NCBI GenBank assembly: GCA_964016885.1
Contig: OZ024742.1
Location: 111,972,001-112,036,000, forward strand
Direction: 5' to 3'
Source of the DNA: Eledone cirrhosa
Lineage: Eukaryota
DNA length: 64,000 nucleotides
Positions within the stretch are counted from its first letter, which is position 1. Each line of letters begins with the position of its first letter. Made by a program: the position numbers and the translations under genes. Below the pieces are notes generated by a model. It worked only from the letters and a program-made list of their open reading frames with translations. It ran no database searches and had not been told where the DNA came from. Shown one piece after another: positions 11,017 through 42,046 of this stretch.

Positions 11017-11080
11017 TTCTACTTTGGTGGCACACACACACACATTCACATATGGCTGAATACAATAAATGTAATCTGCG

Positions 11081-11580
11081 AACACAAGAGCAAGAATGAG
11101 GGGCTCTATTCTGCTTACATGCCTTTAAAAAAGAGGCTTGTTTGCATAATTGCAAACGAATCGAATATTATTATTAATATTCGAAAAACTCAAGTTAGAT
11201 ATATTGTATTCAGCCAAGTAGAGCGAACTATTTCTAAATTTACATTTGAATATGGCAAAGCCGGCCATTAATCGCTCGTATTCAGGAAACTGACTGGCCA
11301 GTCTGTTGATATGCGGATCTGAATGATCAGCCAGTCTACTAATATGCAAATAAGGCCGCTCAGTCACTAGCTCTGAGAGTTGGCATGTTAAGAGTGAACT
11401 GTACTGATGAAGTGTAATACCCGGAAACATTAGTGTTTGCAGTTCTCATAACATGCCAACACAAGAGCAAGAATGGTGGCGGGGGGGTGACTCATTCTAC
11501 TGGCATGGCTTTAAAAAAGAGGCTTGTTTTCATATTTGAAAAGGAATCGAATATTTTATTAATATTCGAAAAACTCAGAT

Positions 11581-11584
<4 letters not shown>
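11081..11584 (+). repeat. Retrozyme-like HHR repeat, family R2 (377-bp unit plus about 125-bp terminal redundancy)
   Basis: aacacaagagcaagaatg...aatattcgaaaaactca starts at 11081 and again at 11458. HHR at 11396-11445. Homologous locus at 24957-25480. Confidence 0.75.
11396..11445 (+). ncRNA. Type I hammerhead ribozyme in R2 repeat
   Basis: gaactgta CTGATGA agtgtaatacccg GAAA cattagtg TT tgcagttc. 8-bp stem I (one G-U), near-palindromic helix III ACATTAGTGT, degenerate stem II, GUU site. Confidence 0.75.
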
Positions 11585-24935: not shown

Positions 24936-24956
24936 AATTGTGTTTAATTTCGTTTA

Positions 24957-25480
24957 CATGCCAACACAAGAGCAAGAATGAAGGGCTCATTCTACTGACA
25001 TGGCTTTAAAAATGAGGCTTGTTTGCCTAATTGCAAACAAATCGAATATTATTATTAATATTCGAAAAACTCAGATTACATTTATTGTATCCAGATTACA
25101 TTTATTGAACATGGAAAAGCCGGCCATTCATGGCTCATATACAGAAAACTGACTGGCCAGTCTGCTGATATGCAAATCTGACTGATCAGTGTATCAGCTA
25201 ATATGCAAATCTGACTGATCAGCCAGTCTGCTAATATGCAAATCAGACCAATCAGTTACTGAATATTTTAGAGAATATCATATATTCTCACTAGCTCCGA
25301 CAGTTGGCAGGTGAACTGTTAATACCCAGAAACCTTATTGTCTGTAGTTCTGTTTGCATGCCAACGCAAGAGCGAGAATAATGGGCTCATTCTACTGATA
25401 TGGCTCTAAAAAGGAGGCATGTTTGCATGATTGCAAACGAACCGAATATTAATATTAATATTCTAAAAATCTAGATTACA
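24957..25480 (+). repeat. Second locus of retrozyme-like family R2 (400-bp unit plus about 120-bp redundancy; HHR core deleted)
   Basis: Collinear with 11081-11584. At 25313-25350, gaactg-ttaatacccaGAAAccttattgTCtgtagttc lacks CTGATGA. Three ATGCAAAT octamers. Confidence 0.75.
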
Positions 25481-25481
25481 G

Positions 25482-25558
<77 letters not shown>

Positions 25559-32562: not shown

Positions 32563-32600
32563 ATATTAATAAATGGAATCTATATTTTTAAAACCATATT

Positions 32601-32666
32601 TATTTTATTATATATATTTCAAGGGCAACCAAGGCAAATGATGGTGCGCTTTCATCAGATAAAATA
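32601..32666 (-). ncRNA. Minimal type I hammerhead ribozyme
   Basis: tattttat CTGATGA aagcgc...gccctt GAAA tatata TA ataaaata. Confidence 0.85.
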
Positions 32667-33851
32667 CAGATTTGTATTATAAATAAATATTGATATACCC
32701 GGAAAAAAGACAACCTTAATAGTTGGAGCTTCCTGGATAGTGGAGATAATATTTTATTGAGGGTAATACAAAGTTATGAGAGAGTATGCAAATGAGTGTC
32801 CGAAAAGCTGAAAAAATAACGGTTTATTTAAATTAAACTGTTGGAAGGAGAGGATATGTGAGGGAGAGAGAAGAAAAGGAAGGTGAAAGAGAGAAGAAGA
32901 AAGAAAGAACGATTATACATAGTGATAGTGAAGATAGTCAAAGTGAACGAGGAAATAAATTTTAATGGAAGAATATACAGAGCGTAAATATATCTAAGTG
33001 AAAGAAGAAGTGAAAGAAGTAATAAGATTAACGTGGAAGAATAAAAATTTAGAATGTAGGGTTCATTACGTTGTGATTATACGATTTATAATGATCAGTT
33101 GAAAAATTAAATTAAAATAAAAAATAAAAAATCAAAATTATAGATTAACATTTACTTTAATATTACAAATTTAATTTAATATTAATATTAAAATTAACAA
33201 TTAAAATTAAAACAGAAGTATTTATATTATATTACGACGTATTAGTAATGATATATTGGTTAGATGTGTATGTTATGGATTATAAATTATTTAAATGTAT
33301 AGTATTTTACATGAGAGAAAATCTATTATAGTTTATTTGATTAAAGTAAGTTTGGCAAAATTATATTTATTAATAGTTGTAAGACAAAACTTAAACAGCC
33401 AAATAATTCCAAATTTATGAAAATTTACGAGAGTTTACAAAGGAATAACTATTTAATTAGATTATAAAAACAGTAAGGAAGTATAAAGGAAGTTAGAAGT
33501 GATTTTTTAAGAACTCAAATAACTCCAAGGATACATAAAAAAACTTAAAACATTTTTTTTTTTTTTTATTTTTATGAGAAGTCATAAATGTTATAAAGTT
33601 AAAAAATGTATCTTAAGAATATAATTAAAACATAAACCATAGGTTATTCCACATATAAATAAAAACCATATGTTATTCCACATATATAAAAATATTTGGA
33701 TATATATTAAAAATGTTTGAAGATATAAAACATTGGAAGATATGAAAATAATGGTTTTTCCCTATCTTTCAAAGGAACCTTCAAAAGATTTACCAAGAAT
33801 TTTCTAAAACATATTTCCCGGTATGTCAATATTATTTATAAAAGAAATCTG

Positions 33852-33918
33852 TATTTTATCTGATGAAAGCGCCCCAATAACTTGCCTTGGTTGCCCTTGA
33901 AATATATATAATAAAATA
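33852..33918 (+). ncRNA. Minimal type I hammerhead ribozyme
   Basis: tattttat CTGATGA aagcgc...gccctt GAAA tatata TA ataaaata. 8-bp stem I. Confidence 0.85.
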
Positions 33919-34049
33919 AATATAGTTTTATAAATATAGTTTCCTTTAATTAATATATTGTGTATTTACTTCACTACATTGGTGAGTGCTTTATTTCAGT
34001 TATAACGTTTTTTAAGCTTGTTGAATCCCAACAAATTAGATATAAGCTC

Positions 34050-35235: not shown

Positions 35236-35322
35236 GTGTGTGTATAAACAAAAATGCTCAGCCGTTAATTTTCATAAGGAAAGTATATACTTTCGAACGT
35301 TCAACTATCTGGCAGATGGGTA

Positions 35323-35367
35323 AACGGTGCTGATGATAGCTAACAAGTTTGAAACTAGTACATCGTT
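35323..35367 (+). ncRNA. Minimal type I HHR, R1 unit 1 (core intact)
   Basis: aacggtg CTGATGA tagct aaca agttt GAAA c ta g TA catcgtt. Palindrome ACTAGT; predicted cleavage after 35360. Confidence 0.8.
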
Positions 35368-35796
35368 CCTGTGTCAGTGTTGAACAAAAAGGTGACGTGG
35401 TTGCTTTAACACCGTATGGCATAAATTCAGGCTGTTCAGTTTGTTTACAAACGAACAAAGCGACGTTATAATAAGCTCAGCTAAACTGATACGTGCATAT
35501 ATGTATGTGTACCTGTATGCATATGTATGTATATATGTATATATATATATATATATGTGCATGCTACTGTACGTCTGTATACATATATGTATGTACGTAT
35601 ACATGCATACTTACATTTAAGTAAGTGCCATACTAAGAGTGAGAAATGAAATTTCGTTTTCATTTTGTTTCAATTTATCGTTTTCGGTATGCCTGACCGA
35701 TTTAACTCACTCAATATGCAAATTAGGCTGCTCAGCCGTTAATTTTCATAAGGAAAGTATATACTTTCGAACGTTCAACTATCTGGCAGATGGGTA

Positions 35797-35841
35797 AACG
35801 GTGCTGTTGATAGCTAACAAGCTTGAAACTAGTACATCGTT
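35797..35841 (+). ncRNA. HHR, R1 unit 2 (core mutation CTGTTGA)
   Basis: Same fold; A6 changed to T. Confidence 0.65.
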
Positions 35842-36005
35842 CCTGTGTCAGTGTTGAACAAAAAGGTGACGTGGTTGCCTTAACACCGTATGGCATAAAT
35901 TCAGGCTGTTCAGTTTGTTTACAAACGAACATAGCGACGTTATAATAAGCGCCGCTAAACTGATACGTGCATATATGTATGTGTACCTGTATGCACATGT
36001 ATGTA

Positions 36006-36039
<34 letters not shown>

Positions 36040-36276
36040 CATGCTACTGTACGTCTGTATACATATATGTATGTACGTATATATGCATACTTACATTTAA
36101 GTAAGTGCCATACTAAGAGTGAGAAATGAAATTTCGTTTTCATTTTGTTTCAATTTATCGTTTTCGGTATGCCTGACAGATTTAACTCACTCAATATGCA
36201 AATTAGGCTGCTCAGCCGTTAATTTTCATAAGGAAAATATATACTTTCGAACGTTCAACTATCTGGCAGATGGGTA

Positions 36277-36321
36277 AACGGTGCTGATGATAGCTAAGAA
36301 GCTTGATACTAGTACATCGTT
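36277..36321 (+). ncRNA. HHR, R1 unit 3 (core mutation GATA)
   Basis: Same fold; A14 changed to T. Confidence 0.65.
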
Positions 36322-36754
36322 CTTGTGTCAGTGTTGAACAAAAAGGTGACGTGGTTGCCTTAACACCGTATGGCATAAATTCAGGCTGTTCAGTTTGTTT
36401 ACAAACGAACAAAGCGACGTTATAATAAGCGCCGCTAAACTGATACGTGCACATATGTATGTGTACCTGTATGCATATGTATGTATATATGTATATATAT
36501 ATATATATATATATGTGCATGCTACTGTACGTCTGTATACATATATGTATGTACGTATACATGCATACTTACATTTAAGTAAGTGCCATACTAAGAGTGA
36601 GAAATGAAATTTCGTTTTCATTTTGTTTCAATTTATCGTTTTCGGTATGCCTGACCGATTTAACTCACTCAATATGCAAATTAGGCTGCTCAGCCTTTAA
36701 TTTTCATAAGTAAAGTATACACTTTCGAACGTTCAACTATCTGGCAGATGGGTA

Positions 36755-36799
36755 AACGGTGCTGATGATAGCTAACAAGCTTGAAACTAGTACATCGTT
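36755..36799 (+). ncRNA. Minimal type I HHR, R1 unit 4 (core intact)
   Basis: aacggtg CTGATGA tagct aaca agctt GAAA ctagTA catcgtt. Confidence 0.82.
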
Positions 36800-37034
36800 C
36801 CTGTGTCAGTGTTGAACAAAAAGGTGACGTGGTTGCCTTAACACCGTATGGCATAAATTCAGGCTGTTCAGTTTGTTTACAAACGACAAAGCGACGTTAT
36901 AATAAGCGCCGCTAAACTGATACGTGCATATATGTATGTGTACCTGTATGCATATGTATGTATATATGTATATATATATATATGTGCATGCTACTGTACG
37001 TCTGTATACATATATGTATGTACGTATACATGCA

Positions 37035-39595
<2,561 letters not shown>

Positions 39596-40237
39596 GAAAA
39601 GTGTAATTTTCTACACAAAGCGAAGGTTATAGAGAAAATTGAGGTTGGTAATGGCACATGGAATATATAAGAGACAGAATACTTTTTTGTGAAAAAACAT
39701 AATTTTATAAGGTAAGGAAATAATAAAGGGTATAAAAAATGACCGGTTTCGATGGGTCTGCAAAAGCCATCTTTTCAAATGTTGATTAATATTAAGAACA
39801 ATTAATAATACGAAGCGTTAAAATTTGAGACTTGAAAATTCAAGTATAAAATTCATTGTGGGATTTCATAGTAGTTTTCATCTTGGTAGCAACAACAGGT
39901 TGACTGCTGTGTCCCTTTCTGGTAGTGAATGAGAAGTTATTTCGGGTGTGGGTTATTTTATAAAGGTCAGATTTAGCAATCGCCAGCTGCTGGTCAGTGA
40001 GGAGGTGGAAGCAATATACATACACATATCTTCCTGTGATGGGTAGGAGAGTGGAGCGTGATAGAAAGGGATTTAGTGCACTTACACCTATATATACACA
40101 CATACCTTCATCCACACATACATACATATACATATACATATATATATATATATATATATACATATACACACATACATACACACACACATACATATACATA
40201 CACACATACACACACACACATATATATATATACACAT

Positions 40238-40285
<48 letters not shown>

Positions 40286-40355
40286 GCATATATATACATA
40301 CACATACATCCAGATACACACATACATACACACACACACACATATATATATATAT

Positions 40356-40407
<52 letters not shown>

Positions 40408-41012
40408 CCACACATACATACACACACACACACATATATATATACATACACATACAAACATACACACACACATATATATACACACACATACACACACACA
40501 TATATACACACACACACACACACACACGCATATATATATATATATATACACATACGCATACATCCAGATACCCACATACATACACACACACGCACACACA
40601 ATACATACATCCACATGCACACACATACACACACACACACATATACACATACATACACCCACACACAGAGAGAAATGGCCTTCAAATATATATATATATA
40701 TACACATACAGACACATATATTTTTTCCATAATATAAGAAGTTGGGGCAGTGAAATTAAAATACAAACTGCTATGAAATCCCACAATGAATTTTATACTT
40801 GAATTTTCAAGTCTCAAATTTTAACTCTTCGTATTATTAATTTTTCTTAATATTAATCAACATTTGAAAAGATGGCTTTTGCAGACCCATCGAAACCGGT
40901 CATTTTTTATACCCTTTATTATTTCCTTACCTTATAAAATTATGTTTTTTCACAAAAAAGTATTCTGTCTCCTATATATTCCATGTGCCATTACCAACCT
41001 CAATTTTCTCTA
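39596..41012. mobile_element. Inverted family B pseudo-LTR structure (minus copy 39596-40768; plus partial copy 40770-41012), HHR-like motifs at 39736-39783(-) and 40859-40906(+)
   Basis: Reverse-complement match to about 9695-10615 and 5406-5930, followed by a direct partial match to 5654-5898. Confidence 0.88.

Positions 41013-42046
<1,034 letters not shown>

Follow-up and report, generated by a model that had tools for sequence, protein, structure and literature searches.

Hammerhead ribozyme repeats of Eledone cirrhosa carry a putative internal promoter of snRNA-type boxes

Introduction

The question raised by this locus is whether an octamer-containing block in front of two different hammerhead ribozymes is a promoter that the repeats carry within themselves. 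The window, by which is meant the whole 64,000-nucleotide stretch of Eledone cirrhosa DNA analyzed here, holds two such repeat families, R1 and R2. The original prediction took them for divergent members of one superfamily, the conserved part being either an internal promoter or an RT-recognition signal.

Animal retrozymes are reported to be abundant circular RNAs. What transcribes them is not addressed in the available portions of PMC7229834 or of 10.64898/2026.07.22.740005, and newt satellite 2 is the sole internal snRNA-type promoter reported in the sources at hand, transcribed by Pol II from an snRNA promoter according to the accessible parts of papers citing the work (PMC2220036, PMC6765202).

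Results

Repeats of the window

The window includes R2 insertions and an R1 tandem array (Table 1). No matches were obtained when the window was scanned with Rfam at gathering thresholds, and the hammerhead variants were identified by pattern.

Table 1. Coordinates of the R1 and R2 repeat features in the window.
Feature	Position	Strand	Remarks
R2 insertion	11047..11584	+	Short inverted arm, then a partial and one full unit; 3' end into (AT)n
Inverted 5' arm	11047..11078	-	Reverse complement of the R2 tail
Octamer box	11344..11354	+	ATGCAAAT-NAG, as in the proximal box of host U6, U6atac, MRP and tRNA-Sec genes
TCAG	11360..11363	+	Core of the proximal element in host Pol II snRNA genes; 16 nt past octamer start
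R2 type I hammerhead	11379..11459	+	Extended stem I; cleavage predicted
R2 downstream hairpin	11470..11547	+	With ATGGC/AGGCT block and degraded terminal hairpin
Second R2 insertion	24952..25485	+	Partial and full unit, 3' end into (TA)n
33-bp triple repeat	25156..25255	+	Octamer in each copy (25170, 25203, 25236), TCAG 16 nt on
R1 tandem array	35255..37043	+	3.8 units of ca. 480 bp, flanked by (TA)n tracts
R1 unit 2 promoter boxes	35716..35764	+	Octamer 35716, TCAG 35732, TATATAC 35758
Two fixed 3' end points of R1 insertions	36086..36157	+	After ca. 36093 and ca. 36157; putative RT start sites
R1 unit 3 promoter boxes	36196..36244	+	Octamer 36196, TCAG 36212, TATATAC 36238
R1 unit 4 promoter boxes	36674..36722	+	TATA mutated
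R1 minimal type I hammerhead	36742..36810	+	Core intact; stem III palindromic, 6 nt; cut predicted after 36792
R1 downstream hairpin	36813..36886	+	With ATGGC/AGGCT block and terminal hairpin ending in CAAACGA

The R2 copy with the motif at 11341 lacks 32 nt, including the TATA, that are found after 11368 in other R2 copies. Its hammerhead has the CTGATGA core at 11404, GAAAC at 11424 and a damaged stem II, the cut being predicted after 11437. The partial unit of the same insertion includes an intact terminal hairpin at about 11139–11159. In the R2 copy at 24957, the hammerhead core CTGATGA is deleted.

Within the R1 array, the boxes of units 2 and 3 are intact and their ribozyme core is mutated; in unit 4, the core is intact and the TATA mutated. 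Unit 1 is truncated through the octamer. Among the other hammerheads of the array, the one at 35330 is intact, and the core is mutated at 35804 and 36284–36309. From the spacing of host promoters, the transcription start of unit 3 is predicted near 36268, at the A of TGGCA.

About 5 kb of degenerate (AT)n lies directly after the R1 array (window 36952–42046). At 32580–33960, two minimal hammerheads of a Penelope-associated family form an inverted pair (32658 minus, 33860 plus) framing ca. 1.1 kb of AT-rich DNA, and a reversed ATGCAAATGAG box is present at 32786, ca. 130 nt upstream of the minus-strand ribozyme of the pair. The hammerheads at 2821 (minus) and 34351 (plus) represent two further families without the octamer, both recurring in the random genome sample.

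Motif common to R1 and R2

As had been predicted, a 23-base motif is common to R1 and R2, with 21 identities out of 23. It is present at 11341–11363 in R2 and at 35713, 36193 and 36671 in R1, with no other occurrence in the window. When the R1 unit was compared with 150 dinucleotide shuffles of the R2 unit, the best 23-base match had 19 identities and the mode was 16. The GCTCAG ending of the motif is private to the 11341 copy, most of the 26 anchored R2 blocks having GATCAG, and with the latter ending the R2 motif still has 20–21 of 23 identities with R1. Altogether 12 exact octamers are present in the window, seven of them within the R1 and R2 repeats; the remaining five are close to the background expectation of four (41 per 660 kb). 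The three octamers reported for the 24957 locus were recovered, all within the 33-bp triple repeat.

Also the other proposed blocks, TGGCA, ATGGC, AGGCT and CAAACGA, are collinear in the two families, except that R2 has an intact CAAACGA in its upstream partial copy (11153) alone and not in the copy at 11525–11547. The claimed gap of 45–75 nt between motif and ribozyme was not borne out: from the motif end to CTGA, R1 has 68 nt and the 11341 copy 40 nt. Measured from the octamer start to CTGA, the distance is 92 nt in the R2 family, 88 nt in R1 and 60 nt in the 11341 copy, where it is short because of the private 32-nt deletion.

Related families in the genome

First-look candidates from the search of the 3.0-Gb genome itself numbered 2,767 for R2 and 1,458 for R1. 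The R1 copies are 94–99% identical to the window unit and the R2 copies ca. 80% identical to the 11341 copy. Majority sequences were constructed from 30 R1 and 25 R2 loci and aligned end to end; the whole-unit score was 150 against 85 ± 8 in 300 shuffles, which supports R1 and R2 as divergent members of one superfamily.

Four further families have the layout of R1 and R2, namely R1b (76–80% identical to R1), R4, R6 and R7, and the consensuses of all six include the core motifs and stems of a type I hammerhead. Because the families share ancestry, they are not six independent cases. In tandem form, R1 reaches the 3.8 units of the window, some arrays fill loci of 3.3 kb, and R2 has mostly 1.2–1.6 units. 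Among 66 evenly spaced stretches of 10 kb (660 kb, mostly from large chromosomes), ten hold a family: five the R1 group, three R4, one R2, one R7 and none R6. This scales roughly to tens of thousands of loci for the superfamily. Within the same sample, 8 of the 41 exact octamers are in these repeats, which may therefore be a main genome-wide source of such sites.

The promoter segment (60 nt) is the best-conserved part between families. For R1 and R2, its z was 7.8 (4.9 without the octamer), against 3.4 for the ribozyme, 3.0 for the downstream part and 1.7 for the upstream flank (48 nt). For R1 and R4, the corresponding values were 7.3, 1.1, 0.2 and −0.3, and for R2 and R4 the promoter had 5.5 and the upstream flank 0.0. 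The exceptions were the upstream flank of R1 and R6 (z 3.3) and the promoter of R1b and R2, which had z of only 1.0 without the octamer. In an alignment of seven copies from five families, TATGCAAAT, a G three bases on and CA at offsets 17–18 were invariant, and R7 has them likewise. Within families, the octamer is retained in 19 of 26 R2 blocks and in 22 of 30 R1b loci, which does not clearly exceed the neutral level. As inserted copies decay neutrally, conservation within families is uninformative and that between families was used instead.

Two loci of the superfamily include other sequences. At L229:5400–6400, another element has been inserted in the hammerhead stem II of an R7 copy. At L305, an inverted R2 promoter segment and a U6atac pseudogene are directly fused, which suggests capture during R2 reverse transcription. 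A metagenome scan with the pattern of box, YCAS and hammerhead core gave ten matches, none with hammerhead stems, and these were taken as chance.

Promoters of the host snRNA genes

The host genes compared were U1, U2, U3, U4, U5, U6, U11, U12, U6atac, MRP, RNase P, 7SK and tRNA-Sec, each taken to belong to the Pol II or Pol III class generally ascribed to it. Loci without promoter boxes (14 of 18 U6, five of six U6atac and one U4 locus) were set aside as likely pseudogenes, and near-duplicate array members were omitted from the 20 distinct Pol II promoters.

Two proximal boxes were observed among the Pol III genes, the TCAG type in RNase P and 7SK and the octamer type in U6, U6atac, MRP and tRNA-Sec. 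Seven promoters of the octamer type (three U6, U6atac, MRP and two tRNA-Sec) have an ATG(C/G)(A/T)AAT-NAG box at −76 to −79 and TATA 46–48 nt after the box start; none of them has YCAS at offset 16. The 7SK and RNase P genes have no octamer, and TATA follows their TCAG 33 and 32 nt later, respectively. The host Pol III genes end in T5–T10, 7SK and RNase P in T8–T10.

In the Pol II promoters (U1, U2, U4, U5, U11, U12 and U3), YCA is at −55 to −58 in all 20, followed by a TATA-like box at a distance of 25–29 nt in 19 of them and 31 nt in one. All 16 U1, U2, U4 and U5 promoters also have AATTA 32–34 nt before YCA. The octamer was found in none of 29 rows of host Pol II snRNA promoters, nor in any of seven in a second comparison. 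In the proposed comparison with host snRNA promoters, the octamer was thus matched in Pol III promoters and absent from the Pol II set. Spacing from core to TATA is 25–29 nt in host Pol II and 32–33 nt in host Pol III promoters, i.e. the Pol III genes hold their boxes 5–7 nt farther from TATA than the Pol II genes. It follows from the host box positions that the octamer box and YCAG are in one register, ca. 16 nt apart.

Some further features were observed in the host set. A distal element, TTACCTCCCTT, is present near −250 in several U1, U2 and U6 promoters. The U6 array and U6atac have one-base variants of the octamer, and the box may accordingly be a SNAPc site rather than a POU site. Ten consecutive bases around TCAG are identical between R2 (window 11359–11368) and one host U2 promoter, and a variant of the 33-bp R2 repeat matches a different U2 promoter around TCAG. 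By eye, the R2 tail (window 11570–11582) loosely resembles the Pol II 3' box of U1, U2, U4 and U5; none was seen in R1.

Promoter boxes of the repeats

All six families keep ATGCAAAT, with NAG after it in five and TGG in R1b, YCA(G/C) at offset 16 and the best TATA-like box at 41–43. From YCA to TATA there are 25–27 nt in each of the six, which is the Pol II spacing, and none has TATA 46–48 nt past the box start as in the U6-type layout. The Pol III-type octamer together with the Pol II-type TCAG core is a hybrid without a host example. The YCA scored 2.7–4.9 bits in R1, R1b and R2 and −1.6 to 0.9 in R4, R6 and R7 (host U6atac 0.3). In R2 (3.5 bits) and R4 (1.9 bits) the TATA is weak, and an alternative at 45 comes near the U6 spacing. 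The AATTA found 32–34 nt before YCA in host genes is absent from the repeats, R1b having GATTA there.

The box-plus-TATA pattern had six matches in the 660 kb of evenly spaced genome, all within these families. At 50–130 nt before the hammerheads of seven other families, a sense octamer was found in 0 of 49 cases. When the search was widened to 220 nt and both strands, one other family had a reversed octamer in 3 of 17 cases, at 112–131 nt, and a forward one in 2 of 17, the reversed arm accounting for one of these two.

Vertebrate snRNA genes have an octamer enhancer ca. 200 nt upstream of the start. A vertebrate-type distal enhancer was rejected as a reading of the present octamer, which is at −76 to −79 in host genes and 16 nt before TCAG in the repeats. 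Thus the predicted internal promoter of snRNA type agrees with host promoters in its boxes, but the octamer would have a proximal role and not that of a distal Oct enhancer. Judged from the sequence matches, the octamer block probably works as a promoter, and the start is predicted at offset 72–73 from the octamer, at the A of TGGCAG in R1 and R2.

Ribozymes and conserved helices

The pairing partner of TGGCA is TGTCA or TGCCA, located after the cut site; in R4, R6 and R7, other pairs replace TGGCA. The first downstream hairpin and a terminal hairpin ending in CAAAC(GA) fold in R1, R1b, R2 and R6 despite differing sequences, the terminal hairpin also in R4. Ahead of the terminal hairpin, five families have retained A(C/T)G(G/A)C at the sequence level. 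In the per-family fold predictions on which these helices rest, TGGCA would be an arm of an extended stem I and the downstream blocks would be hairpin arms, forming a separate class of shared block. They are better candidates than the octamer for recognition by a protein.

The repeat RNA is predicted to self-cleave. In each of the six folds, the 5' arm of the extended stem I begins 5–14 nt ahead of the predicted start, and a full-length stem I would therefore be formed only in read-through or circular RNA. The position of the arm ahead of the start could fit read-through RNA; alternatively, the start could be misplaced.

Insertion pattern and mobilization

The insertions consist of tandems, either partial or long, and an inverted 5' arm is often present. 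In the three families included in the 3'-end tallies, 28 of 36 R1 ends, 34 of 41 R1b ends and 31 of 33 R6 ends were at two fixed sites running into (TA)n; in R1 these fixed ends are ca. 40 and ca. 100 nt before the octamer. The accessible parts of PMC8557442 and PMC11167929 describe the same pattern of partial tandems, 5' inversions, tail and fixed ends for Penelope-like elements. Elements with RT plus GIY-YIG are abundant in the same genome, several of them with the Cys linker that PMC8557442, as far as available, ties to (TA)n targeting in Penelope-like elements.

A search of 50 of the 150 listed GIY-YIG loci (10,596 candidates exist) revealed no autonomous element bearing an R-type terminal repeat, and the Penelope-like partner is therefore inferred. 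The flanks of 150 repeat loci did not include an autonomous partner either, the five Penelope protein matches being all outside the units, and R copies near ORFs look like nested insertions. By analogy with the described elements, it is likely that the repeats have been moved by Penelope-like elements.

A hammerhead array behind the ORF of locus L092 was rejected as the partner repeat, as it is a separate tandem family. This family (L092:5480–6400), located behind a Penelope-like element, has a unit of ca. 460 bp, a long stem II and no upstream octamer box. The 3' regions of L092, L102 and L107 are terminal repeats of two Penelope-like families, in which a hammerhead-like fold, its core non-canonical, comes after CCAAT and TATA.

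Polymerase class

The longest T run of a full unit is 6–7 in R1b (11 of 11) and 5 in R6 (6 of 6). In R1 it is 4 in 18 of 24 units and 7–9 in six, while R2 has a T tract of 5–12 in four of six and the R7 majority sequence has T5–6. The promoter is upstream of the start, and is therefore copied to a new site only from RNA spanning the whole unit. The T runs on this read-through path together with the TATA spacing favor Pol II; provided that the block is a promoter, the repeats are likely to be transcribed by Pol II.

Discussion

On balance, R1 and R2 appear to be homologous non-coding hammerhead repeats of the non-LTR retrozyme type, with a probable internal promoter composed of snRNA-type boxes, likely read by Pol II, and likely moved by Penelope-like elements. 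The established part of this reading includes the homology, the boxes, their spacing, the match with host promoters and the insertion pattern.

The first alternative is a U6-type promoter read by Pol III, with leaky termination yielding the read-through RNA that carries the promoter. Among host promoters the octamer box was found only in the Pol III set, R1 and a tRNA-Sec promoter have 15 consecutive bases in common, R2 and R4 offer the alternative TATA at 45, and the second fixed 3' end is in or beside a T-rich tract. Also Schistosoma hammerhead repeats are reported as Pol III transcripts in the available text of PMC6765202. However, the TATA of R1, R1b, R6 and R7 is 4–6 nt closer than in all seven host octamer-type promoters, the YCAS at offset 16 is found in none of these seven, and in most R2 copies, as well as in R1b, R6 and R7, T5–T12 runs separate the start from the next ribozyme. 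Transcription by Pol III hence seems unlikely.

According to a second alternative, the block is merely inherited or an Oct/POU enhancer, and transcription comes from flanking host promoters or TA tracts. One ancestral element could underlie all families and the octamer is not retained above neutral within them; R2 multiplies the 33-bp octamer–TCAG unit in an enhancer-like way, and an unrelated hammerhead subfamily has the box reversed ca. 130 nt upstream (3 of 17). Yet the box, YCA and TATA keep their positions while the flanks, and even the ribozyme stems, diverge to chance, and the orientation and distance of the octamer are fixed in six families, which makes this explanation improbable.

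That the octamer block is an RNA-level signal for the Penelope RT, the other possibility raised in the original prediction, would agree with its location inside the copied unit and its conservation between families. This idea is not supported by the insertions, the fixed 3' ends of which are upstream of the block; moreover, the block matches host DNA promoters, where it is outside the transcripts, and it is absent ahead of the hammerheads of Penelope elements in this genome sample. We regard it as very improbable. Chance likeness of R1 and R2 in an AT-rich genome, to which the private change in the 11341 match could contribute, is excluded by the shuffle tests of motif (21 of 23 against a maximum of 19) and whole unit (150 against 85 ± 8) and is contradicted by four more families with the same layout.

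With an internal promoter read by Pol II, the life cycle of the repeats could be as follows. Transcription would start shortly before the hammerhead, ca. 72 nt past the octamer, and continue through the promoter of the next unit as far as the following hammerhead. The RNA would then be cut, probably as dimers in the case of R1, to give a monomer or an oligomer holding the promoter inside. A Penelope-like RT/endonuclease would copy this RNA from the two fixed internal sites into (TA)n, producing partial or long tandems with 5' inversions. As a consequence of such tandem copying, every insertion of more than one unit would bring its own promoter ahead of a ribozyme.

A wider and more tentative reading, for which the odds are slightly unfavorable, is that at least six retrozyme families, with tens of thousands of copies, have a hybrid promoter seen in none of 29 host promoters. 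A TATA shift of 5–7 nt, a half-turn, would set the polymerase, and the repeats, being on the Pol II side, could read through their own T runs and package the promoter in self-cut RNA.

The newt satellite 2 promoter has a distal octamer. Unlike it, the octamer of the present repeats is proximal, 16 nt before the TCAG core. In the accessible parts of the papers citing newt satellite 2 (PMC2220036, PMC6765202), the combination of a hammerhead tandem unit and an internal snRNA-type promoter is the same as here, and the likeness is likely convergent. Schistosoma Sm-alpha, as presented in the available text of PMC6765202, is similar in having a promoter ahead of the ribozyme and in needing tandem copies to propagate, but it is reported as Pol III transcribed, whereas the boxes here are upstream and of snRNA type.

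The repeats resemble metazoan non-LTR retrozymes, as far as these are described in the available portions of PMC7229834 and 10.64898/2026.07.22.740005, in their short tandems, one type I hammerhead per unit, low GC and co-existing Penelope-like elements, which are the proposed mobilizers there. They differ in having snRNA boxes, no internal promoter being described in the accessible text for the retrozymes of Cervera and de la Pena 2020 and of Li, Clavereau and Pollet 2026. In contrast to the Xenopus retrozymes, the present repeats gave no homology to the terminal repeat of an autonomous element. With non-autonomous Penelope-like elements and pLTRs, according to the accessible parts of PMC8557442 and PMC11167929, the repeats share the arrangement in partial tandems, the 5' inversions, a tail on one side, RT starts at fixed internal positions, (TA)n or AT-rich targets and a promoter in the terminal repeat. 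The autonomous Penelope-like elements of this genome differ from R1 and R2 in having CCAAT and TATA ahead of the ribozyme and no snRNA boxes, and they have no terminal sequence in common with R1 and R2.

In snRNA promoters of Drosophila the spacing is 8 versus 12 bp. As in the insect promoters treated in the available parts of PMC1761439, both polymerases use one proximal element with class-specific sequence and conserved spacing to the downstream box; the sequences are different, though, and here a TATA-like box is present in both classes with a spacing difference of 5–7 nt. The literature search, whose coverage excluded bioRxiv supplements and most subscription journals, gave no paper on an snRNA or octamer promoter in hammerhead repeats or U6 genes of cephalopods or molluscs.

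The host layout, with its two proximal boxes and the 5–7 nt difference between Pol II and Pol III, is useful for guide RNA expression. The six families, in turn, give a precise invertebrate candidate promoter with predicted start base, polymerase and box mutants. If the wider reading given above is true, the repeats would be a portable, self-contained expression unit for circular RNA, and the question of how invertebrate retrozymes are transcribed would be answered.
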